The notes below the pieces were generated by a model, which was not told the DNA's origin, made no database searches, and saw nothing but the letters and a program-made list of their open reading frames with translations. A DNA stretch of 64,000 nucleotides from a bacterium (GTDB lineage Bacteria > Hinthialibacterota > Hinthialibacteria > Hinthialibacterales > Hinthialibacteraceae), in the NCBI GenBank assembly GCA_963662285.2, contig CAXXMV010000006.1:96001-160000 (forward strand), given 5' to 3'. Shown piece after piece: positions 2 to 64,000 of this stretch (within the stretch, counting starts at the first letter, position 1; each line of letters starts with the position of its first letter). A program made the position numbers and the translations under genes.

Positions 2-94
2 CACCAGGTTGGTTCCGTGCAGTTCACCTGGTTCCGTGATGTTACTCTCGAAACAACCGGTCCAGTTTCCGTCTCTCATTGGGAACTGCATTAA
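2..94 (+). CDS. 3' end of a CDS truncated by the window edge, ending ...TLETTGPVSVSHWELH*
   Basis: Frame 2 is open from base 2 to TAA at 92-94 and is followed by a terminator. The ending matches the terminal motif of the two serine hydrolases. Confidence 0.8.
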   Translation, partial: HQVGSVQFTWFRDVTLETTGPVSVSHWELH

Positions 95-4916: not shown

Positions 4917-7900
4917 ATGAAAATAAAATATAGAGTTTTTATACTAATGCTTGTTTTAGTTGTACTGATTTCCGCCATCTATTCATACCAAAGTTATGTC
5001 ATGCAACGGAAATTATTGATGAAAGGCATTGATGAGAAACTTTATGTTTCTGCAAAAATGGCTCAGGCAATCCTGCCGCTGGATTATCACGACCGTATTG
5101 TCGATTCCACTTCTGTTTCAAAAAAAGAGTATGATCAAATTGTTGACCAGTATAACAAACTCTGCGTCGATCTTGATATAGAATACTTATGGAGTCTGAT
5201 GAAGGTCAATGGAAAAATCGTTTTCACATCATCCACCTCTCCTGACAAAAATGTAAACAACCAAAAACAAGCCAAGTTCTTCGAAATTCATACCAATCCC
5301 GATGCCTACAAGCAGGCTTTTACAACTCAGGAACCACAATATCAGATCATTATTGACAAATGGGGTAAGCTCAAGAGCGTCCTGATTCCCTTCCGAGACA
5401 GACATGGAAGACCATACTTATTCGGCGCATGCGCCGAATTATCAGAAATTGATCAGTTGCTAAATCAAAGTATTGAAGACTCGGCGTTTCTTGCTTTGGG
5501 ATTTCTGATTATTGGATCCATTTTCAGTTATATGTTTGCCAACCTGCTTTCTAAACCATTCAGTAATCTAACTAATGAAACAACAGAAATCGCATCAGCC
5601 CGACTGGACGGAATAATTGAGGAAAAAGGTTCTTATGAACAGGTTATGCTTGCGCGTAGTTTCAATCGCATGAGTTTGGTAATAAAGGAGAGAATCGCAG
5701 AACTGAAGAAGAGCGAAGAAAACCTGTATACCACCCTCAACTCTATCGGAGACGCCGTAATCTCCACAGATACCGAAGGCGCTATCACCCACATGAATCC
5801 GGTTGCCGAGAATCTCACCGGCTGGATGCTTGCAGAAGCGCAAGGCAAACCACTGACTGAAGTCTTCAATATTATCAATGCCAAGTCCAGGGAACCTGCA
5901 GTCAATCCGGTAAAAAAAGTGCTGGAAAGCAGCGAGATCGTTGGACTAGCCAATCACACTTCGCTCATCAGAAAAGATGGAACGGAATACCAGATCGCCG
6001 ATTCCGCCGCTCCCATTCGGGGCGTCGATAACGCTATAAACGGCGTTATTCTGGTTTTCCGGGATGTGACTGGCGATTACCGGTTGCAGGAACAACTCAA
6101 GGAAATCAACGAGAAATACCAACGCCTCGTCAGCAACTTGATCGGAACGTTTCTATACCGGCTTAATGTTAACGGAGTCTTCGAATACGTATCGCCGTCA
6201 ATCACCAAAGTCCTGGGCTACACCCAGGAAGAATTCTGCAAGCATTTCTCGACCTATCTTACCGACAATCCCATAAATCAGAAATCTCTTGAATTCTCAG
6301 CGCTAAGTCTACGTGGAATACAGCAACCGAGGTATGAACTCGAGATTTTCGCAAAGGGGAACGACATACACTGGCTAGAGGTTTCGGAAAGCGCAGTTCG
6401 AGATGAAAATGGGGAAATCGTGGCAGTGGAGGGTGTGGCCCATGATATCACAGAACGCAAACGATCCGAGGAGGAGCTCAGAAAAAGTCAAGACAAACTG
6501 ATGACCATCATTGATCAAGCCCCGGTCATGATTGATTCTTTCGACGAGAGCGGCAAGTGCCTGATTTGGAATGCAGAATGCGTCAAACGATTGGGGTGGA
6601 CTGCTGAAGAAGTTAACGCTGCGGATAATCCCATGGCCTTGTTTTATCCTGATCCAGAGATTCAGAAGCAAGTCTACATGGCATTAGAACTGGCTGACGG
6701 CTCATTCCGGGAATATACCCTCCAAACCAAGGAGGGTTCTACTGTTGAACAAGTCTGGGCGGATTTCCGCTTGCCCGACGGCGCCATCATCGGCCTGGGG
6801 TACGACATCACCGAGCGCAACCAGGCCGAGAGAGAGAGCGTAAAACTACAGTCGCAGTTAGCCCAAGCGCAGAAGATGGAATCCATAGGACGGCTGGCAG
6901 GCGGAGTGGCTCACGATTTCAACAACATGCTGTCAGTTATTCTGGGCTACGCAGAGATGGCCCAGAAACGGGTGGATTCTTCACAACCACTCCATGCAGA
7001 TCTTCAGCAAATCGTGAAAGCCGCCGAACGTTCCGCCGATCTTACCCGGCAACTGCTGGCTTTTGCCCGTAAGCAGACCGTTTTACCCAAAGTCATGAAC
7101 CTGAATGACGCGGTTGAGGTAATACTCAAAATGTTGCGCCGGCTCATTGGTGAAGATATAACCCTGGCCTGGATGCCAGGATCGGAACTATGGTCTATCA
7201 AGATGGATACCAGCCAGGTTGATCAGATTCTGACGAACCTGTGCGTCAATGCCCGCGATGCCATAACCGAAGTGGGGAAGATTACTATCGAGACGGATAA
7301 CTGCTTCTTTGATGAAACGTACTGCGCCGGACATGCTGGATTTGTCGTCGGAGAATATGTATTACTCGCTGTGAGCGATAACGGCTGCGGCATGGATAAG
7401 GAAACTCTTGCTCAAATATTCGAACCTTTCTTCTCTACCAAGAACATTGGTGAAGGCACTGGTCTGGGATTATCCACCGTCTACGGCATCGTTAAGCAAA
7501 ACCACGGATTCGTCTACGTATACAGCGAACCGCACCAGGGAACTACCTTCAAAATATATCTGCCCAGGTACAGGGACAAAGCCGGAACGTTACCAACTGA
7601 GAGAACAACGGAATTGGATCTCAGCGGCGGAGAAACTATCCTGTTGGTTGAAGATGAACCGTCGCTACTGATGTTGAGTACAAAAATGCTCGAAGAACTT
7701 GGCTATAGGATTCTGGCTGTGGGATCGTCGAGTGAGGCCATCGAACTGGCAGAAAAACACGCCGGTGAGATTCATCTGCTGCTGACCGACGTGATCATGC
7801 CAGAAATGAATGGTTGGGATCTGGCCCAAAACATTCTTTCACTTCACCCAGATATGAAGGTATTTTTCATGTCCGGCTATCCGGCCAATGTCATCGCTCA

Positions 7901-7997
7901 TCACGGCGTACTGGAAGAAGGGGTCAATTTTATTCATAAACCCTTTTCAATACAGGATATGGCAACCAAAATACGTGAAGTGCTGGATAATGATTAA
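4917..7997 (+). CDS. Hybrid sensor histidine kinase (periplasmic sensor, HAMP, 3 PAS, HisKA, HATPase, REC)
   Basis: Two TM helices flank a periplasmic domain. HAMP LARSFNRM, H-box LAGGVAHDFNN, GTGLGLS, receiver ILLVEDE...LTDVIMP...HKP. Confidence 0.95.
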   Translation: MKIKYRVFILMLVLVVLISAIYSYQSYVMQRKLLMKGIDEKLYVSAKMAQAILPLDYHDRIVDSTSVSKKEYDQIVDQYNKLCVDLDIEYLWSLMKVNGKIVFTSSTSPDKNVNNQKQAKFFEIHTNPDAYKQAFTTQEPQYQIIIDKWGKLKSVLIPFRDRHGRPYLFGACAELSEIDQLLNQSIEDSAFLALGFLIIGSIFSYMFANLLSKPFSNLTNETTEIASARLDGIIEEKGSYEQVMLARSFNRMSLVIKERIAELKKSEENLYTTLNSIGDAVISTDTEGAITHMNPVAENLTGWMLAEAQGKPLTEVFNIINAKSREPAVNPVKKVLESSEIVGLANHTSLIRKDGTEYQIADSAAPIRGVDNAINGVILVFRDVTGDYRLQEQLKEINEKYQRLVSNLIGTFLYRLNVNGVFEYVSPSITKVLGYTQEEFCKHFSTYLTDNPINQKSLEFSALSLRGIQQPRYELEIFAKGNDIHWLEVSESAVRDENGEIVAVEGVAHDITERKRSEEELRKSQDKLMTIIDQAPVMIDSFDESGKCLIWNAECVKRLGWTAEEVNAADNPMALFYPDPEIQKQVYMALELADGSFREYTLQTKEGSTVEQVWADFRLPDGAIIGLGYDITERNQAERESVKLQSQLAQAQKMESIGRLAGGVAHDFNNMLSVILGYAEMAQKRVDSSQPLHADLQQIVKAAERSADLTRQLLAFARKQTVLPKVMNLNDAVEVILKMLRRLIGEDITLAWMPGSELWSIKMDTSQVDQILTNLCVNARDAITEVGKITIETDNCFFDETYCAGHAGFVVGEYVLLAVSDNGCGMDKETLAQIFEPFFSTKNIGEGTGLGLSTVYGIVKQNHGFVYVYSEPHQGTTFKIYLPRYRDKAGTLPTERTTELDLSGGETILLVEDEPSLLMLSTKMLEELGYRILAVGSSSEAIELAEKHAGEIHLLLTDVIMPEMNGWDLAQNILSLHPDMKVFFMSGYPANVIAHHGVLEEGVNFIHKPFSIQDMATKIREVLDND

Positions 7998-8056
7998 GTT
8001 TTTTTTGTATAGCAATTTAGGATGGCTTATGCCTGATCGACCCATCAATTGATTTA

Positions 8057-8686
8057 TTACGGCGACGCTTGCTCTATGGAATCACTGTTTGCTTTATTTT
8101 CCAGACTCTTCACCCAGCTCTGTGGATAGAGTCCGTATGATTCAACCTGTTGGCCGGTTTCATTAAACAGATCAATCTTCATCAGCCCTTCATTGTCCAA
8201 TCCGATCAAGCCCCTTCGCTTCTCATGATCATCAAACAGCGAAATATGCGGAACGCCGCTTTCCTTCAAACCATATACCGAACGCATTCGACCCTGGTCA
8301 TCGAAGAATTTCAGTAAGGGATAACCTTCCACACCCACGCCGAAATGGGCGCGGGGATTCTGCATCTTATCCAGAATAGTAATTGCTGATGATCCAAGTA
8401 TCACCCGGTATTCACCGTCATCTCCGGTAACAATGTATTGCCGGGCGGTAAGGGATTTTTGTGAAGATAGCATAAAGGTGATAAGAAACGCAATCACCAA
8501 TATAATTGCGGTTCCACACAACGAAATCGCCGTAATTAGAAGACGGTTTCGTCGCTCCAGTTTGGAAACACGCGACTTGGCAACCTGCAACTCACGCGCA
8601 ATGACTTTAACGGCAATATTTATGTTGGGCTTTTTTAACATATTTATACTATGACGAAACAGTAAAAAGTTAAAAACTGCTTTCAT
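8057..8686 (-). CDS. Hypothetical single-TM protein with coiled coil and short beta repeats
   Basis: 209 aa ORF with coiled coil RVSKLERRNR, one TM, then repeats of roughly [IL]x[LF]xDxxxxxR. The start is uncertain. Confidence 0.75.
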   Translation of the reverse strand: MKAVFNFLLFRHSINMLKKPNINIAVKVIARELQVAKSRVSKLERRNRLLITAISLCGTAIILVIAFLITFMLSSQKSLTARQYIVTGDDGEYRVILGSSAITILDKMQNPRAHFGVGVEGYPLLKFFDDQGRMRSVYGLKESGVPHISLFDDHEKRRGLIGLDNEGLMKIDLFNETGQQVESYGLYPQSWVKSLENKANSDSIEQASP

Positions 8687-8933
8687 GATTTCAACAATTT
8701 GTAGATATTCAAGGTTGACTCATACGAAATATAGTGTGAGTTTCGTCCTACATCCACTTTTAGCCGACTCATCATACTATAGCGCTTGCCCATTGCATAC
8801 GCCAATTGACCTCTTCAGATTGTTAAAAAAATTGCAAAAAATAGAGCGATTCTCAAAATGATGTTCGTTTATTATCACGTTTAGTCTTTGAATAAGAAAG
8901 TTATTATATAAACTTCTCTAACAGGGAAATAGA

Positions 8934-9565: not shown

Positions 9566-9689
9566 AAAGGACTGCTCGCGATAAATATTCCGATATTTTC
9601 ACATCCCCTCTTCATTTCATCCCGTAAAATATGTTAGTATGAAACCTGTAGAATCTAATTCATCCATCAATTCAAGCAGGATATTCACC

Positions 9690-10322
9690 ATGAGAAAGCA
9701 AGCCTTCACTTTGATCGAATTACTAATTGTAGTCGCCATTATCGGCATCCTGGCGGCGATAGCGGTTCCCAATTTCCTCAACGCGCAGGTGCGGGCGCAG
9801 ATCGCGCGGGTGCGCAGCGACATGCGCTCCATCGCGGTAGCTTGCGACAGTTACCGGCTCGATAATAACGCATTCCCCTGGCCTATCCGCAACGGGCAGG
9901 TATGGAATACATCCAATCACATCGGCAACTGCATCGAACTAACCACTCCAGTGGCTTATCTCTCCACCGTCATGATGGAAGACCCCTTCATCCCGCAACG
10001 CTTCTGGCAGGATTTCAGCGCTAACCGCGCTCATCCCTCCTACGTCTACGTCTCTTACCGGGGCGACTGGGGAGTCAAATGGGGCGCCAGCAGCGCCGGA
10101 GTTCCGGTCGGAGACCTGCCCAACGGCTTCGGCCTCACCTCGCAAGGCCCCGACGGAACCGATTCCGGCGGCGTCCACTGGCCTCTGCAAGTCAAATACC
10201 TCAACAACATCCAGGCCGCCAATAATTCCCTATACCAACCATCCAACGGCCTGCGCAGCCTGGGAGACATAACCCGCTACGGCGGAGACGTCCCCGCCCC
10301 CGCAGTGTTAGGCGGCGGATGA
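9690..10322 (+). CDS. Type IV pilin/pseudopilin-like protein (prepilin N-terminal cleavage/methylation domain)
   Basis: MRKQA|FTLIELLIVVAIIGILAAIAVPNF class III signal. ATG 9690 is preferred over the ORF-track start at 9639. Confidence 0.93.
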   Translation: MRKQAFTLIELLIVVAIIGILAAIAVPNFLNAQVRAQIARVRSDMRSIAVACDSYRLDNNAFPWPIRNGQVWNTSNHIGNCIELTTPVAYLSTVMMEDPFIPQRFWQDFSANRAHPSYVYVSYRGDWGVKWGASSAGVPVGDLPNGFGLTSQGPDGTDSGGVHWPLQVKYLNNIQAANNSLYQPSNGLRSLGDITRYGGDVPAPAVLGGG

Positions 10323-25414: not shown

Positions 25415-28402
25415 TTATCGCATTTGCGTCATCAAATAATTGAATGGAATTTCAGGATTTTTGGCGCCAGTTAGAGATAATACTCTATCGCTTTCGCCCA
25501 TCTCAGAAATGTGAAGCAAATTAAATAACCATACCGGCTTGGTTTGCTTATTGTCAGTCTTTAGCATTTCCCAAGGTATGGAGATTTCCAGGGATTTCGC
25601 GCCAGAGTTAGGATCATCATTCAAATTATAAGCGGCTTGAATCGATAGGGCTTCATCATTGGGCGAATTAGGGTGATTATTTTTATGCGCAATTTTTTCC
25701 ATGAAATCTTTAGGCAGAATTTCCTTGAGCCATTCAGGCATTTCCTCAGATAACAGGTCATCAGGAGAGAAAGTATTCTTCGATTCACCCTTAAATGTTA
25801 ATCCAAGAGCATCAATCACCCGCGTTTGAAGGTTAATTTGCGGTTTTAGAGAATCTTCCTGCTGCTTTAGATCGACCGAGATTTGCATAACATTGCTGTA
25901 ATCGCGTCCAGGGCAAAGCATAACTTTAATCTGATCGTCCTCGTGGATATCTCCATCAACATAAAGATAAAGATTCGTAGAATCGCGCAGCATACGAAGA
26001 CTTACCTCTGAATCCGATTCACCCATTTTAAGCGGCAATGCCTGAGATTTCCGCCATCCATCTTCTTCCATGAGGCCATCAACCGTAACGGGCGTTTCAA
26101 CCGCCGCAACATTGATTACGCTTTCCAGCGTTCCACTCGAAGTTAAAGCCGATTCAGCGTTGGCGGCCATCGGTAACCAGCCATCGCCAGCATTAATGCC
26201 GGCGGCTTTGTTGAAAAGAGCAGCGGCGATAGACGCATTTCCCGCATCGCGTTTCGCCAAAGCAATGCCGAATAATGCTGCGCCTTTATCGATGCGTTGC
26301 GTCTTGGCAGCCCATTGATTTACCCGCTCAATAATCCGCTCAATGTTATCATCATCAATAATGATTTCGCGGTTTACCAGGGATGCGGTTTTGGGCATTT
26401 TTTCCATCACGCTATCATAAACTTTCAGCGCGGCGTCCTTGTCGCCCATTGTTTTATATAAATTACCCAATTTCGACAAGTAGCGGTCATCTTCCGGGAA
26501 GAACTCAACCAATCGTGAATACAAACGGGCGGCGCGTTCGTTATCATCCGATTTACTGCACCAGTCAGCCCAAAAAGCGACCAGGTCTTTAGCGCCCAGC
26601 GATATTTTCCGCTGCGACATAAAATCAACCGGCGGAACGATGCGAAGGTCGTTGATTAATTGCACTTCGTTAGAAACGATTTTATCCGGTTGGATTACCG
26701 AATGCTTCACTGTACCTTTAAGCACCTGCCAACAACTCATCAGATAGGCGGCGCGGTCTAAAACAAAAGATGGCAATGTGCGAAGTTCATCAGGCAAACC
26801 AAAAGCGAGGTCAGGAATAGAACCCATCTTGCGCATCGCCTCTCGATAAGCGTAGAATTCAGATTCGTTATCCTGGAAAGACATCTTATTTGCAGGCATC
26901 ACAGCAACATCATTCAAAAAACGGTATTGCCGGTTTCTTCCAATGCCGCTGCGTACGCCCGCTTGAATATCGAGCATTTCACGGATCATGTTGGGCCGGG
27001 TTGCCAGAATCATTACTTTGTCATGGATGCACCAGCTGGGCGCAAAAGGAATCAAAGGTATAGGTATTGTCAACGAAGAGATTTCCTTTCCCAGATAGGT
27101 CTCGGTTTCAATAGAAAGGGATATCTGGAATGTCTTGGTAATGAGAGAGGCCAGTTTTTCTATACCGCGAAGAGCTGCGTCGTGGTCTGTAATTTCCAGC
27201 ATGGAGGCGCCCTGGTTGGTGGCAATAATCGTTTCCAGATCCATAGCCGGTCTCATGGTGCACCATGAATCTCCCATCCAGCTAAGAATATCCTTCTCAA
27301 TCGAGAATTCATTCTCCTCTTCCCATTGGCTGATTCCAGTTAAAAATTCCTGAACCGGTTTCACATCTTTAAGCAAACTGTGGCCTAAAGCCCAGATATC
27401 TTTCGGGCCGAAAATGTTTCCGCTGGAAACTGTACCGACTTTACGGGGTAGATATTTTTCGAAGATAAATGGAACCGGCTTGCGGTTAATCATTTGCTGT
27501 AGGACTTCATTCTCAAACGAAAGATTAAACCTGGTATGAGATACAGTATTTAAACGATCCTTATCATCGATCCATTGGGCGGATGAGTAAGACTTAAAGG
27601 AATGCATAAAAGCCAGAACGCTTTCTATGATGGGCATCGCCTCATCAATATCATTGAAAGCATCGAAATGCTGCATGGATTTAAGGTTCTTGGCTAAGTA
27701 TTCCCCGGTCTGGCCGATCTTGGCGTAATTGGCGAAGAAAGTATAAGAACGTTTTTCGGGCAGTTCGGACATAGCCTCCTTATAAACATCCAAATCAGCC
27801 AGAAAGCCTTCTTCATCTTCCAGGCGGTCTATGGCATCCAGTAAGAGATGCTTGCTGTTGGCGATCATCAAGGTAGAATCTTTTATGGCAAAGGCCAAAT
27901 CAAGTCCAGGCAGAGTTAAAGGTCCATAGAGTGAATAAATCAAATACCCATAATATTCATCCTTAACGCTGTGAACCGGAGTAATCAGTTGGTCGATTTC
28001 TTGCAGAAATGAGCCTAATACCTGTTCAGCTTTTTCGGGATCGCTCACTTCAGTGATGTATAATCCCCTTCCAGGGATGGGGATGCCTTCTAACAGAGGG
28101 AATAGAGCGAAAGACCATTTGTCGCCCGAAAAAATTTCGCTATTCTCTTTGAAACCGCTTTTCTCAATTATCGTCTGGAATTCTTCCTTCAGCACCCGCC
28201 ATTCAAGGATGTCATCCATTAAGGAAAACCAATTGTCAAAAGCCTTATCATAATTGGGCAATGGGACTTGAAAAGATTTGTCGCATCCCCAATAAAACAT
28301 GGCATTGGAGGGCGTCATCCGGTCAAAGGGACTACCGAAAGCAGTCGAAGTTAAAAGCGCTCCATAACATACAAATGCAATAAGACGAATGCGCCATCGC
28401 AT
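25415..28402 (-). CDS. Large secreted protein (DUF3352-like region, TPR repeats, C-terminal CBM9/DOMON-like domain)
   Basis: Signal peptide after a GGAG RBS (ATG 28402), TPRs (LGNLYKTMGDKDAALKVY), and VTVDGLMEEDGW...DSTNLYLYV...LEISIPW. The DUF3352 call is from resemblance only. Confidence 0.7.
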   Translation of the reverse strand: MRWRIRLIAFVCYGALLTSTAFGSPFDRMTPSNAMFYWGCDKSFQVPLPNYDKAFDNWFSLMDDILEWRVLKEEFQTIIEKSGFKENSEIFSGDKWSFALFPLLEGIPIPGRGLYITEVSDPEKAEQVLGSFLQEIDQLITPVHSVKDEYYGYLIYSLYGPLTLPGLDLAFAIKDSTLMIANSKHLLLDAIDRLEDEEGFLADLDVYKEAMSELPEKRSYTFFANYAKIGQTGEYLAKNLKSMQHFDAFNDIDEAMPIIESVLAFMHSFKSYSSAQWIDDKDRLNTVSHTRFNLSFENEVLQQMINRKPVPFIFEKYLPRKVGTVSSGNIFGPKDIWALGHSLLKDVKPVQEFLTGISQWEEENEFSIEKDILSWMGDSWCTMRPAMDLETIIATNQGASMLEITDHDAALRGIEKLASLITKTFQISLSIETETYLGKEISSLTIPIPLIPFAPSWCIHDKVMILATRPNMIREMLDIQAGVRSGIGRNRQYRFLNDVAVMPANKMSFQDNESEFYAYREAMRKMGSIPDLAFGLPDELRTLPSFVLDRAAYLMSCWQVLKGTVKHSVIQPDKIVSNEVQLINDLRIVPPVDFMSQRKISLGAKDLVAFWADWCSKSDDNERAARLYSRLVEFFPEDDRYLSKLGNLYKTMGDKDAALKVYDSVMEKMPKTASLVNREIIIDDDNIERIIERVNQWAAKTQRIDKGAALFGIALAKRDAGNASIAAALFNKAAGINAGDGWLPMAANAESALTSSGTLESVINVAAVETPVTVDGLMEEDGWRKSQALPLKMGESDSEVSLRMLRDSTNLYLYVDGDIHEDDQIKVMLCPGRDYSNVMQISVDLKQQEDSLKPQINLQTRVIDALGLTFKGESKNTFSPDDLLSEEMPEWLKEILPKDFMEKIAHKNNHPNSPNDEALSIQAAYNLNDDPNSGAKSLEISIPWEMLKTDNKQTKPVWLFNLLHISEMGESDRVLSLTGAKNPEIPFNYLMTQMR

Positions 28403-28623
28403 AATATAACTCCTAGGTTTGTTGACTAAGTTTTGCCTTTTCATTGCCGTAAGACCTCAGGCTTTCAAACAGCTAATCACAGATGCCCAAAGTATTTGCG
28501 CATCAAAATCTTATGATTTGATAAAAATCCTAATTATCTATACTCACTACTACTGATAAAACGCACTTTATTTTGACAATTACTCTAGTACTCTGACCAA
28601 CTAATTATGTCGGGCGACCTCGT

Positions 28624-40667: not shown

Positions 40668-41879
40668 ATGACTTGGAAGGAAAACAGTGCCATGGATGCA
40701 AGAATGAAATTTATTGCGGATGTCCTCCGCAAAGAAGACACACTAAGCGCCTTATGCCAAGCATATGGCATTAGTAGACCAACCGGATATAAATGGATCA
40801 AGCGCTATCAGGAAGACGGTCCTGGTGGATTGGAGGAGCGATCCCGGGCGCCCCATACCCAAGCACTAGCCGTTTCTAAAGAGACCGAAAAAGAAGTGAA
40901 GGCTATGCGAAAAAAGTTTCCGCACTACGGTCCTAAAAAATTACGGGTGGAACTGAAAAAAAAGGATGCGACGAAGCACTGGCCGGCAACCAGTACGATT
41001 GGCGAGATACTAAAACGCAAAAATCTGATTGTCAGCCGCAAGCAAAAAGATCGCGCCAAACCAAGTGGTGAAGCGTTAACCGAATTCGACCAAGTGAACC
41101 GCGTATGGTGCGCGGATTTCAAAGGAGATTTTCTAACGGGAGACGAACATCGATGTTTCCCTTTAACCGTATCGGAAGGGGCTAGCCGCTATTTACTCTG
41201 CTGCCAAGGCATGCAAGAAACCAATGGCGCATTGGTACGCGTAATTTTCGAGCAGATTTTTCGCGAGTATGGTTTACCAGAAGTCATTCGAACGGATAAC
41301 GGGGCGCCCTTTGCGTCGACCGGAATCGGAGGGTTAACCAAATTATCCGTGTGGTGGATAAAACTGAGAATTTATCCAGAACGAATCCAGCCGGGTCGGC
41401 CTCAACAAAATGGCCGTCATGAGCGAATTAACCGGACCTTGAAAGCAGAGGCCATTTCTCCACCAGCGCCAACGCTGCGTGAACAACAAAAACGTTTTGA
41501 TCAATTTCAAAAAGTGTACAACGAAGAGCGGCCTCATGAGAGTTTGGGACAACGACCTCCCGCGCAGTTGTATCAACCCTCGCCGCGCGTCTATTCAGGT
41601 AAAGCGCCGAATTGGGAGTATCCAGAGACCATGCAGGTGCGCTAAGTGAAAACCCATGGTGAAATCAGTTGGCGAAGCAAGCATTGGTATTTGGGGGAAG
41701 CTTTGGGAGGTGAATTGGTGGGACTAGAGGAATTGGAAGAGAATAATTGGCGCATTAGTTTGGGTAACGTGATTCTCGGTTGGTTGAATATGTCAAAAGG
41801 TGAGGTGGTGCGTGAATTGTCTTTGAGACGCATCAATCATCCAAAAGCAATCAGTCACCCGGCAGTATGTCCCAGGTAA
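40668..41879 (+). pseudogene. IS481 transposase interrupted by an in-frame TAA (41643-41645)
   Basis: HTH (GISRPTGYKW), WCADFKG, IRTDNGAPF, PQQNGRHER and YNEERPHESL. The same frame continues VKTHGEISW...LGEALGGELVGL after the stop. Confidence 0.9.
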
Positions 41880-42207: not shown

Positions 42208-42491
42208 CTCGAAATAATCTGTAGAAAAAGAAGTAAAAAAACAGTTCTAGCAAGTAAGCAATTCAGAATACGTTGATATACCTGAAAACGGATTATCTCT
42301 TTAAAAAAACAGATAAGTTGCCATAATTTTCGAGACAAAAGTGTAAACCATGTGCCCGGTCTAAAGTGTAAACTATGTGCCCGGTCATTCACAAGAGGGG
42401 GTTGTTTTCAGTAACTTCCGTTTTCTGATTTACGTAATAATCAATAGTTTAACTGCCGTTTTTAGGTTTATTCAACAATTTGGAGTTAATA

Positions 42492-43664
42492 ATGACAAAA
42501 CCAGAATTGAGAATAGTATTAACAGTATTTTTGACAACAATCCTCACGCTCAACATTTCTGCGCTTGAATTCGATCAACCTCTACCAGAGTCGCTTACCA
42601 AACAATTTCAAGATACACTGAATCAATATACAGAAAAAATAAAACCCGGATATATTCCCGGATATTCCGCCGCCGTCCATATCGAAGGAATCGGAATGTG
42701 GATTGGCGTTACCGGAAATGCTGTGAAAGGAGAAACAATCAGGACAGACGAGGGAGTAGAATACCCGGGCGCAATCCCTCTACAACACGGAGATCAATTC
42801 CATATTGGAAGCCTTACTAAACAGTTCGTTTCTGTTGTGGTATTGCGTCTTATGGAAGAGGGCAAACTAACTTTGGATGACACTCTGGAGCAGTGGGTTC
42901 CAGGTGGTATAGTAGCCAACGCTGAACTGATCACCATACGTCAATTACTAAGCCATACGAGTGGAGTATACGATAACACATCAGTACCAGTTTTTTTTAA
43001 TACTGTTAAACTCGATCCAAATTCGCCCGGCACGGCCAAAGAAATAATCGAATACGTAAAAGATAAAAACCCCAAATTTTCTCCTGGACAACCAGGACAG
43101 TTCAGTTACTCAAATTCAGGATACACCCTCCTCCACATGATAGTTGAAGCAGTTACGGGAAAACCTTTTGTAGAAGAATTCCACAGACTCGTGACTCAAC
43201 CACTAAACTTGAATGAAACTTATTATGGCGGTTTTGAAGAAATTACTGATTACTCTACTCTGGGCTATGAAGGAAGTAAGGTTGTATCAAATGACATGCA
43301 TTTATCATGGGCTGCGGGTGCGGGAAACATAGTCTCCACCGCCGACGACGTTTGCCGTTTCGCTTCAACGATATTCGGTGGATATTATCTTCAACCGGAA
43401 ACACTAATAGAAATGACTACTCCCATTGAAAACAACTATGGCCTTGGAGTTGGTGTTGCAGGAGAAGACTGGAAATACGTATTTCATTCAGGTAGTATTT
43501 TTGGATTCTGCTCAGATTTTATATATAATGCGAATTGTGGGATCACGGTGATTTGTCTTCAAAATTCATCATCGACTAATAATACGCGTAACATTAATAA
43601 TAAGTTCTTAAAAATATCCTTTGAATGGATTGAAACCTCAGTTCAGGAATGGTCTCTGTATTGA
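42492..43664 (+). CDS. Secreted serine hydrolase (beta-lactamase/D-Ala-D-Ala peptidase family), copy 1
   Basis: Signal peptide, SxxK (GSLTK), LLSHTSG, YSN and HSG motifs; ends ETSVQEWSLY*. GGAG RBS before ATG 42492. Confidence 0.93.
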   Translation: MTKPELRIVLTVFLTTILTLNISALEFDQPLPESLTKQFQDTLNQYTEKIKPGYIPGYSAAVHIEGIGMWIGVTGNAVKGETIRTDEGVEYPGAIPLQHGDQFHIGSLTKQFVSVVVLRLMEEGKLTLDDTLEQWVPGGIVANAELITIRQLLSHTSGVYDNTSVPVFFNTVKLDPNSPGTAKEIIEYVKDKNPKFSPGQPGQFSYSNSGYTLLHMIVEAVTGKPFVEEFHRLVTQPLNLNETYYGGFEEITDYSTLGYEGSKVVSNDMHLSWAAGAGNIVSTADDVCRFASTIFGGYYLQPETLIEMTTPIENNYGLGVGVAGEDWKYVFHSGSIFGFCSDFIYNANCGITVICLQNSSSTNNTRNINNKFLKISFEWIETSVQEWSLY

Positions 43665-44685: not shown

Positions 44686-45858
44686 ATGATAAAACCAGGA
44701 TTCAGAATAGTTTTCACTGTATTTTTGACAGCAATCCTTCCGGTCATCACGTCTGCGCTTGAATTCGATCAACCTCTACCAGATTCGCTTACCGAACAAT
44801 TTCAACATACCCTGGATAACTATACACAAGATTCAATACCCGGTTATAGTCATGGGTATTCCGCCGCCGTCCATATCGAAGGGATAGGAATGTGGATTGG
44901 CGTCACTGGCAACGCGGTAAGAGGGAAACGAACTGCCACAGACAACGGGACTGAGTACCTGGGCGCAATCCCCCTGCAACCCGGAGATCAATTTCATATT
45001 GGAAGCCTCACCAAACAGTTTGTTTCTGTTGTGGTATTACGTCTTATGGAAGAAGGCAAACTAACTTTGGATGACACTCTGGAACAATGGGTTCCCGGCG
45101 GTGTAGTAGCCAACGCCGAACTGATCACCATCCGTCAATTGCTTAGCCATACGAGTGGAGTATACGACAACACGGCATTACCAGAGTTTTTTAGTACTGT
45201 AACAATCGATCCAAATTCGTCCGGTACTGCCAAAGAAGTGATCGAATTTGTAAAAGATAAAACTCCAAAGTTTTCTCCTGGACAAGAAGGAAAGTTCAGT
45301 TATTCAAATTCCGGATACACGCTCCTCCACATGATAGTTGAAGCGGTTACAGGGAAACCATTTGTAGAAGAATTCCACCGGCTCGTGACTCAACCGCTCA
45401 GTTTGAATGAAACCTATTATGGCGGCTTTGAAGAAATGCCTGATTACCCCACTCTGGGCTATGAGGGAAGTGGAGTTGTATCAAAAAACATGCATTTATC
45501 ATGGGCGGCGGGTGCGGGCAATATAGTCTCTACTGCAGATAATGTCTGTCGTTTTGCCTCCACGGTATTCGGTGGATATTATCTTCAACCGGAATCTTTA
45601 ATCGACATGATTACTCCCATCGAAAGCGACTATGGACTTGGTGTTTGGATTATAAATGGAAATGGGAAATACATATTACATTCTGGTAGTATCTTTGGAT
45701 TCAGATCAGAAATGATATATAATGCGAATCATGGGATCACGGTGGTTTGCCTGCAAAATTCATCGTCGACTAATAACACGCGTAAAATCAATAGCGAGTT
45801 CTTAAACATATCCTATGATTGGATTGAAACGGTAGTTTATGAATGGTCTCTTTATTGA
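44686..45858 (+). CDS. Secreted serine hydrolase, copy 2
   Basis: Paralogue of 42492-43664 with the same catalytic motifs; ends ETVVYEWSLY*. AGGAG RBS. Confidence 0.93.
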   Translation: MIKPGFRIVFTVFLTAILPVITSALEFDQPLPDSLTEQFQHTLDNYTQDSIPGYSHGYSAAVHIEGIGMWIGVTGNAVRGKRTATDNGTEYLGAIPLQPGDQFHIGSLTKQFVSVVVLRLMEEGKLTLDDTLEQWVPGGVVANAELITIRQLLSHTSGVYDNTALPEFFSTVTIDPNSSGTAKEVIEFVKDKTPKFSPGQEGKFSYSNSGYTLLHMIVEAVTGKPFVEEFHRLVTQPLSLNETYYGGFEEMPDYPTLGYEGSGVVSKNMHLSWAAGAGNIVSTADNVCRFASTVFGGYYLQPESLIDMITPIESDYGLGVWIINGNGKYILHSGSIFGFRSEMIYNANHGITVVCLQNSSSTNNTRKINSEFLNISYDWIETVVYEWSLY

Positions 45859-63364: not shown

Positions 63365-64000
63365 ATGAACCTTATTTGCAAAATTATCGTTGTTTTTTTA
63401 ATCGGATTGGTGCTTACGCCATCCTTAAGCGCCGTAGACTTTGGGGATTTAGATCAAAACATCAATACTAACGAATTAATACCAGATGCCAATTTCCGTA
63501 CGGCAATTGAAAAAATCATGGGAGTACAACCAGGTGAAAACATTGCTCTCGGCGATGCAATAGAAAAAGAAGGTTTTCTTGTTGTGACTGATATAGATAT
63601 TAAGGACCTTACAGGCTTGGAGTATTTCCCCAATATATCGTCCTTATATTGCAATAATAATCAGATTGAAGAGTTGGATTTAAGCAATAATTTGAATATA
63701 GAAAAAATTTATTGCGCTAATAATACAATTCAGAATATTATTATCCCGGAAAATTCCAAATTGAAATATCTGTATTGCATGAACAACAATTTAGTCAATC
63801 TCGATTTGAGTAATGCGAAAAATCTGGTTGTCGTAAATGGCCGCGACAATCAACTGGAATCGATTAACCTTAATGGTCTATCGAATTTGGAAAGGGTTTA
63901 TCTCTACAATAACAACTTAACTCAACTTGATGTTACATCCAATCCGGACTTGAATTATTTGAGTTGCTTCAATAATAATTTAAGTGAATTGAACGTCGAT
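63365..64000 (+). CDS. Secreted internalin-like leucine-rich repeat protein (truncated by the window edge; not in the ORF track)
   Basis: MNLICKIIVVFLIGLVLTPSLSA signal, IPDANFRTAI cap, IKDLTGLEYFPNISSLYCNNNQI, then roughly 21 aa LRRs open to the end of the window. Confidence 0.92.
   Translation, partial: MNLICKIIVVFLIGLVLTPSLSAVDFGDLDQNINTNELIPDANFRTAIEKIMGVQPGENIALGDAIEKEGFLVVTDIDIKDLTGLEYFPNISSLYCNNNQIEELDLSNNLNIEKIYCANNTIQNIIIPENSKLKYLYCMNNNLVNLDLSNAKNLVVVNGRDNQLESINLNGLSNLERVYLYNNNLTQLDVTSNPDLNYLSCFNNNLSELNVD

Follow-up and report, generated by a model that had tools for sequence, protein, structure and literature searches.

A short C-terminal tail on exported proteins of Hinthialibacterota and Sumerlaeota is a candidate sorting or recognition tag

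Proteins of the bacterial genome G000, a member of Hinthialibacterota/OLB16, share a C-terminal tail with the nine-residue consensus T-x-V-x-[DNE]-W-[SEM]-[LI]-[YFH], sometimes followed by one polar residue. The tail is position-specific, modular, and conserved, it has a recognizable class of cargo and a defined taxonomic spread, and the genes encoding it are linked to genes for pilins. With somewhat better than even confidence, we interpret it as an undescribed short modular C-terminal sorting or recognition tag that would be read in trans after Sec export, with a pilin-dependent route being possible.

The tail came to attention in the window, i.e., the whole 64,000-nucleotide stretch that was analyzed (G000:C6:96001-160000), where a sequence-only reading proposed that three proteins share their C-terminus. 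Translation bears this out, with all three tails in register with the stop codon: the gene truncated at the window start (2-94, forward strand) ends in FTWFRDVTLETTGPVSVSHWELH followed by the stop, and two secreted hydrolases end in ETSVQEWSLY and ETVVYEWSLY (Table 1). In full, the truncated gene (G000:C6:94382-96094) encodes a secreted protein of 570 aa with an N-terminal signal peptide followed by a DUF1349-like, a DUF11, and a second DUF1349-like domain. As also stated in the sequence-only reading, it does not resemble the hydrolases outside the tail, the best BLASTP E-value being 1.5 and thus not significant. The gene directly upstream of it (C6:93118-94029) likewise ends in TSVKNWSLY. The LRR protein starting at 63365 (873 aa), which had been named as a further possible carrier, ends in DIFDLDLFE and is without the tag. 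Directly upstream of the first hydrolase lies an ORF of 325 aa (40668-41645, forward strand), which has a near-identical N-terminus at C1:1154693-1155766 and a family of approximately 23 members; it resembles an insertion-sequence transposase and lies next to the duplicated hydrolase genes.

Table 1. Positions of tagged proteins, a pilin paralogue, and secretin-domain genes (window coordinates unless a contig is given).
Feature	Position	Strand	Support and remarks
C-terminal add-on TTGPVSVSHWELH and stop codon of the 570-aa DUF1349-DUF11-DUF1349 protein	53..94	+	Translation, homologues, AlphaFold2
Tag core PVSVSHWELH of the 570-aa protein	62-91	+	Translation; gene start upstream of the window, G000:C6:94382
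Secreted beta-lactamase-fold serine hydrolase	42480..43664	+	PF00144, E = 4e-47
First hydrolase: likely start ATG; tag TSVQEWSLY; stop	42492; 43635-43661; 43662-43664		Profile score 26.0
Paralogous hydrolase, 80% identical to the first	44686..45858	+	Tag TVVYEWSLY at 45829-45855; profile score 22.9
GspG-like pilin paralogue	9639..10322	+	TIGR02532 and GspG, N-terminal region only; no tagged gene adjacent
Secretin-domain genes, G000	C1:566030, C6:776419, C6:877401, C1:1223889, C7:12065, C3:300794, C3:301848, C8:420434		

Genome-wide, the pattern W.[LIMV][YFHW]-stop ends 130 of 5193 ORFs, where the frequency of these four residues at internal positions (895 in 2,085,225) would predict 2.2; the ORF set was defined by a crude, home-made heuristic (at least 100 aa, first ATG/GTG/TTG as start, nested ORFs removed). 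A 10-residue profile placed 163 ORFs above a threshold that is reached by 0.05% of random internal windows, and approximately 170 profile matches lie at or within 2 residues of the C-terminus compared to 22 elsewhere. At a profile score of at least 12, 144 matches were exactly C-terminal, 25 were followed by 1 residue, 1 by 2 residues, and 1 by 6 residues, and just 21 were located at least 54 residues from the end, in approximately 2.08 million positions. Among the 130 tails, T occupies position -9 in 85, V or I position -7 in 119, D, N, or E position -5 in 87 (38, 27, and 22, respectively), S, E, or M position -3 in 92 (47, 27, and 18), L or I position -2 in 109, and Y, F, or H the last position in 129, with W at -4. 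The tag is preceded by a few small or polar residues and, before these, by the hydrophobic end of the preceding domain. Since all synonymous codons are used at the conserved positions, with Ser encoded by both TCN and AGY, and each of the three stop codons is used, selection acts on the peptide. Stop codon usage after the tag is nevertheless uneven (TAA 83, TAG 35, TGA 12), TGA being approximately three-fold under-represented (12/130 compared to 27% genome-wide, where TAA, TGA, and TAG end 2575, 1412, and 1206 genes, respectively).

In 25 of the G000 tails, an extra residue, mostly E, D, N, Q, or K, follows the aromatic, so that not all tails could be recognized strictly through the carboxylate of an aromatic last residue. 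This variant and a sub-family that ends in W-E-L-[FLM]-K, represented by these G000 proteins and by the homologues P0146, P0148, P0149, P0153, and P0154, may reflect different reader specificity or trimming.

The sequence-only reading anticipated that the motif would be enriched on proteins with signal peptides and would extend beyond the window paralogues, and both were found. A signal peptide was called for 118 of the 130 tagged proteins and for 2123 of the 5063 other ORFs (Fisher p = 1e-30), using a crude and permissive home-made heuristic that is positive for 42% of these other ORFs. A hydrophobic span after residue 60 is present in only 3 of the 130 tagged proteins compared to 831 of the 5063 others, and the 169 profile-positive proteins include 3 with TAT-like and 7 with lipobox-like N-termini. 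After their tails had been trimmed off, the 130 carriers fell into 74 single-linkage BLAST groups, the largest with 40 members. A sample of 42 carriers, consisting of representatives of different groups with 250-900 aa plus the window proteins, was searched against Pfam. While 23 of the 42 were without a match, the others contained CBM9, LamG, papain C1, S15 peptidase, FG-GAP, beta-helix, DUF11, DUF1349, and beta-lactamase domains, as well as a tyrosine phosphatase with LRR, an MtrC-like multihaem cytochrome, and a periplasmic-binding-protein fold. These domains are typical of extracellular enzymes and binding proteins.

Comparison with homologues characterized the tag as an add-on of 13-15 residues past the end of the conserved domain. 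In the hydrolase alignment (A3), at least 22 of the 70 non-window homologues end at the position aligned to residue 379, 15 residues short of the P0002 C-terminus, and the tail was found on 1 of the 118 non-window homologues listed (P0005, 32% identical). Other hydrolase homologues carry at the same end a T9SS CTD (P0064, P0083), RTX repeats (P0010, P0025, P0029, P0115), or DUF3471. For the 570-aa protein, the tag or a variant of it, including W-E-L-[FLM]-K and extra-E forms, has been kept by 28 of the 33 close homologues (37-100% identical) and is found in 0 of the 36 distant ones; those distant homologues with a recognizable DUF1349 ending stop directly after the last strand (F-D-x-V-x-V). 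The AlphaFold2 model of the 570-aa protein, computed from an alignment including tagged homologues (mean pLDDT 92.5), places the last strand at residues 547-559 and residues 561-570 in a coil with a mean pLDDT of 49, and the tail of this protein is therefore modeled as disordered, with no packing against the carrier predicted. The model of the hydrolase (mean pLDDT 91.6) extends the terminal helix through the tail, with a pLDDT of 91 for residues 381-390 in a region that is backed by just three sequences of the alignment. Thus, the tail is not predicted to be free in every context.

With respect to taxonomic range, the tail had been described as lineage-specific. This description is to be widened to two phyla, Hinthialibacterota/OLB16 and Sumerlaeota. 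Using a strict DNA pattern for T-x-V-x-x-W-x-[LIMF]-[YFH]-stop with the reversed pattern as a control, 61 matches compared to 1 control match were obtained in G000, and matches were present in 34 of the 35 genomes of its phylum, which is identified as Hinthialibacterota/OLB16 by the names of homologues. Close homologues of the 570-aa protein are listed by NCBI under Candidatus Hinthialibacter sp., Ca. Hinthialibacter antarcticus, Ca. Omnitrophota, and "bacterium"; PMC9324843 states that OLB16/Hinthialibacterota were once assigned to Omnitrophota. The number of matches per genome differs by family, from 10-61 (f1), 8-28 (f3), and 3-10 (f2) to 1-18 (f6), with 4 matches compared to 2 in the control for f5 and 0 for f4 (G001, 84% complete). 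In the second phylum, a relaxed pattern gave 41 matches compared to 1 control match in a Ca. Sumerlaeales genome, and 36 and 31 matches, compared to 3 control matches each, in other strong genomes. The set of 75 Sumerlaeota genomes is patchy, with 15-41 matches in ten, 5-14 in many, and 0-1 in 20 genomes, and the consensus of the tails is S-[SA]-V-x-[DNG]-W-x-[LI]-Y. Single genomes of Verrucomicrobiia, Planctomycetia, Aminicenantaceae, Fimbriimonadales, and Thermoanaerobaculaceae yielded nothing above the control.

The architecture of the tag differs from all curated bacterial C-terminal sorting signals. In agreement with the expectation that no existing model of a sorting signal would match, a search of 32 tails of 40 aa against NCBIfam, which includes CTERM and LPXTG models, returned only weak matches to IS66 TnpB and DVU2496 at E-values of up to 10 (HMMER filters drop many weak matches), and no Pfam model covers the tail in the 42 sampled full-length carriers. 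Likewise, no description of the tail was found in the literature, including the paper naming Hinthialibacterota, within a coverage of open-access main texts and abstracts; the terms "C-terminal", "sorting", and "secretion system" gave no match in PMC9324843. The LPXTG/sortase, PEP-CTERM/exosortase, GlyGly-CTERM/rhombosortase, and MYXO-CTERM/myxosortase signals resemble the tag in being short, C-terminal, lineage-restricted, and shared in a many-to-one relationship by dozens of unrelated proteins with signal peptides. However, in sortase-type signals a transmembrane helix and a basic cluster come after the motif, and a dedicated membrane enzyme carries out the cleavage, whereas here the motif itself forms the last 9-10 residues and extends to the stop codon or to the last residue but one. 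Having neither a transmembrane helix nor a basic tail, the tag does not belong to the tripartite sortase/exosortase class, and the assertion of the sequence-only reading that no membrane-anchored class fits is upheld.

Other signals are similar to the tag in single aspects. The T9SS CTD (Por_Secre_tail, PF18962) is also found at the C-terminus of Sec-exported hydrolases and binding proteins, but it is a folded domain (75 positions in the Pfam model), unlike a nine-residue tail with predicted disorder, and PF18962 has no match in the 42 tagged proteins. Type I (RTX) substrates combine the lack of a signal peptide with upstream RTX repeats, in contrast to the largely signal-peptide-positive carriers of the tag, and RTX repeats (PF00353) were not matched in the 42 carriers. 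The beta-signal of outer membrane proteins, which has hydrophobic residues at -1, -3, -5, and -7 in the last strand of a beta-barrel and a terminal aromatic read by BAM (a YxF end is read by the DegS PDZ domain), shares with the tag an aromatic end in register with the C-terminus; however, the tag has S/E/M at -3 and D/N/E at -5, and its carriers are soluble enzymes and binding proteins. The WxL cell-wall-binding domain of Gram-positive (Firmicutes) surface proteins also places W-x-L near the C-terminus but is a full domain of approximately 150 residues with two WxL motifs. The eukaryotic PTS1 (-SKL) and KDEL signals are very short, lie at the extreme C-terminus, are bound by a soluble or membrane receptor, and have no cleavage-type architecture; as kingdom, compartments, motif, and receptors all differ, they offer an analogy only. 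A precedent for a soluble, Sec-exported protein with a disordered peptide at one terminus is given by TcpF/CofJ, for which, according to PMC10120004, it was experimentally shown that a type IV pilus recognizes a disordered N-terminal export signal through its minor pilin TcpB. This type of signal fits the linkage to pilin genes described below, but it is N-terminal with one substrate per system, whereas the tag is C-terminal on approximately 170 proteins and is connected to pilins here through gene linkage. A disordered terminal segment as in TcpF is predicted for the 570-aa protein, in contrast to the hydrolase tail, which is modeled as helical.

That pilin-like proteins might be partners of the tag had been suggested from the window, and tagged genes are indeed enriched beside genes for GspG-like pilins. 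G000 encodes approximately 110 of these pilin paralogues (found by a regular expression), which are approximately 207 aa long, start with a prepilin-type N-terminus (GFTLIELLIVVAIIGILAAIAVPNF...), and have a globular part that is conserved; GspG and pilin models match just their N-terminal region. An immediate pilin neighbor was found for 20 of the 130 tagged genes, compared to 5.5 +/- 2.1 in 500 random placements (maximum 15), and the corresponding rate of 15.4% exceeds that of other proteins with signal peptides (6.4%, p = 0.001) and of the remaining proteins (2.9%). Conversely, 25 of the 201 non-pilin neighbors of pilin genes are tagged, compared to 3.3% of all ORFs, and no homology family has more than 6 members among these neighbors. 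Tagged and pilin genes are co-oriented in 18 of 21 pairs, with gaps of -3 to 250 nt in 17 of these and 810 nt in one, and the pilin gene lies downstream of the tagged gene in 12 of the 18. The linkage was reproduced in three further genomes, two from the phylum of G000 (G037, G038) and one from Sumerlaeota (G035), where 14 of the 110 tags have a strict-pattern pilin start no more than 3 kb away, compared to 4.9 expected (Poisson p = 5e-4). Within 20 loci of the Sumerlaeota genome, partly chosen with knowledge of the pilin sites, the pilin family is the sole recurrent non-tag neighbor, with 10 genes in 8 loci. Furthermore, among loci fetched with the pilin alignment, tag-like ends occur beside pilin genes in 9 of 38 (L080-L117), chiefly from metagenome-assembled genomes titled "bacterium" or Sumerlaeota; the 42 loci from other lineages (L118-L159) show none. 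In both phyla, tagged and pilin genes are often found in apparent operons.

This association with pilin genes is a new observation that could be reproduced in both phyla. It involves a minority of the genes, as most of those with a tag are without a pilin neighbor (15% have one) and pilin genes also adjoin untagged secreted proteins. The expansion of the pilin family is itself phylum-wide, with 34-107 strict-pattern matches in most genomes and the fewest, 15, in the one tag-less genome. In neither phylum, however, do the numbers of pilins and tags go together. Across the phylum of G000, pilin and tag counts gave a Spearman rho of 0.30 (p = 0.08), with individual mismatches such as 55 pilin matches with 1 tag (G029) and 107 with 10 (G003). 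Tag-poor Sumerlaeota genomes have as many pilin matches as tag-rich ones, and the tag-free genome G036 has a full-length pilin relative. In 19 loci of low-tag genomes (G002, G027-G031), only the pilin family recurs, with 8 genes in 6 loci, which is approximately what its abundance predicts for that range. Co-folding of the pilin globular domain (A1, residues 28-202) with an alignment of 40-residue tails (A2) gave a score of 0.00, which weighs neither way.

In the search for components that could read the tag, 8 secretin-domain matches, two of them in adjacent C3 ORFs, were identified in G000 together with at least 3 T2SS-like clusters as well as Tad and type IV pilus clusters. The contexts of the secretin genes were T2SS-like, Tad, type IV pilus/MSH-like, and TPR-fused, and, in the cluster on C1, two adjacent ORFs (L160:6049-7503 and 7521-8762) share the secretin N-domains and the secretin domain between them. 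In Sumerlaeota, secretin domains are present in all 75 genomes, with fewer in the tag-rich ones. The GspD N0 domain (PF21305), considered as a marker of a tag-reading T2SS, was discarded, being present in 3 of 10 tag-rich genomes (at least 15 matches) but in 18 of 20 tag-poor ones (at most 1 match). This distribution implies that any pilin-based machine involved is not of the canonical GspD-N0 type. The T9SS CTD was also rejected as a mutually exclusive alternative to the tag, with matches in 3 of 75 Sumerlaeota genomes, a count that may be too low, as there was also no match in 14 control genomes. None of the approximately 10 PDZ-containing ORFs of G000, a complement that looks ordinary, could be convincingly linked to the tag: the 59 proteins encoded near the 8 secretin-domain matches (7 regions) showed no PDZ domain, and there were just two weak matches (E ~1e-3) beside tagged genes. 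Apart from the pilins, the other neighbor families in G000 are only large generic ones, such as oxidoreductases, sulfatases, and sensor kinases. The additional proposal of TPR proteins as partners found no backing, as no link to the tag emerged; this includes the TPR protein of the window (25415-28444, reverse strand), which has 1009 aa with DUF3352 and TPR repeats and may be the one that the sequence-only reading was referring to.

From these observations, we infer a sorting role in which the tag would be appended after the last structural element of unrelated, soluble, Sec-exported proteins. Once the signal peptide has been cleaved, an envelope component could recognize the free and flexible tail in trans and would direct the protein beyond the periplasm, either for release across the outer membrane or for surface display. 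A pilin-based machine, related to type II secretion or type IV pili, would be the most likely route, and is favored because tagged genes in two phyla recurrently share the orientation of single GspG-like pilin genes. Substrate recognition by such machines is described as poorly understood in PMC10120004 and PMC12369372. The more specific proposition that the tail acts as an export signal that is linear, general, and transferable, serves a pilin-based machine, and is read by members of the expanded GspG-like pilin family or by a partner of theirs, is put forward tentatively, and we regard it as rather unlikely in this strong form.

Docking and PDZ-type processing are the main alternatives to this reading. 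The same tail could instead act in retention, with its Trp, Leu, and Tyr residues holding exported proteins non-covalently on the cell surface, i.e., on the outer membrane, a glycan layer, or a scaffold, in spirit like a miniature dockerin or a cell-wall-binding motif. A cargo rich in carbohydrate-binding and degradative domains would gain by staying on the cell, the tail is aromatic with predicted disorder and lacks a cleavage-type architecture, and the extra residue on some tails would be tolerable for a surface-binding motif. However, nine residues are very short for stable anchoring, no receptor or scaffold family recurs among the neighbors, and an export signal fits the same data equally well, so that we consider docking a doubtful explanation, albeit one to be kept in mind. 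A reader might also be sought among periplasmic proteases or chaperones that bind C-termini (PDZ-containing Ctp/Prc or HtrA-type proteins), in which case the tag would signal maturation, quality control, or degradation, being trimmed or setting the time of turnover. PDZ domains recognize hydrophobic or aromatic residues at the very C-terminus, where the tag is located, and PDZ-containing ORFs are available in the genome. A PDZ ligand would present the free carboxylate of a hydrophobic last residue, with a class-specific residue two positions before it; the last residue is Y/F/H in 129 of the 130 regex-defined tails, and the position two before it is mixed S/E/M. Moreover, a precedent exists in the T2SS of Vibrio cholerae, in which EpsC's PDZ domain is needed to secrete one substrate, as given in PMC12369372. 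Against this stand the ordinary PDZ complement without a clear representative in secretin clusters or, beyond the two weak matches, beside tagged genes and the residue beyond the aromatic in 25 of approximately 170 tails. In addition, a degron on approximately 3% of the proteome that is conserved in close homologues would be harder to rationalize, rendering this explanation improbable. Finally, the tail might be no signal at all but a convergent structural cap or end-of-domain motif, or a nucleotide-level feature of the stop codon (terminator or termination context). The helix that AlphaFold2 extends through the hydrolase tail and the scarcity of TGA stops in tagged genes would agree with this, but the tail occurs on unrelated folds beyond conserved domain ends, is predicted to be disordered in the DUF1349 protein, uses all synonymous codons and three stops, and is carried by proteins with signal peptides, and the explanation is therefore largely refuted and very improbable.

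Short C-terminal tags have led to new envelope machinery before, namely to sortases, exosortases, rhombosortase, and myxosortase, and the tag described here likewise points to unknown sorting machinery. In two uncultivated candidate phyla, which are apparently specialized in polymer degradation, it marks approximately 3% of the proteome, and it allows the extracellular or surface proteome of both phyla to be predicted from sequence. If the link to pilins is true, substrate recognition by pilin-based secretion would become directly testable with a defined peptide, and if such a machine reads the tail, machines of this kind would have their first signal that is defined by sequence and serves an entire secretome.
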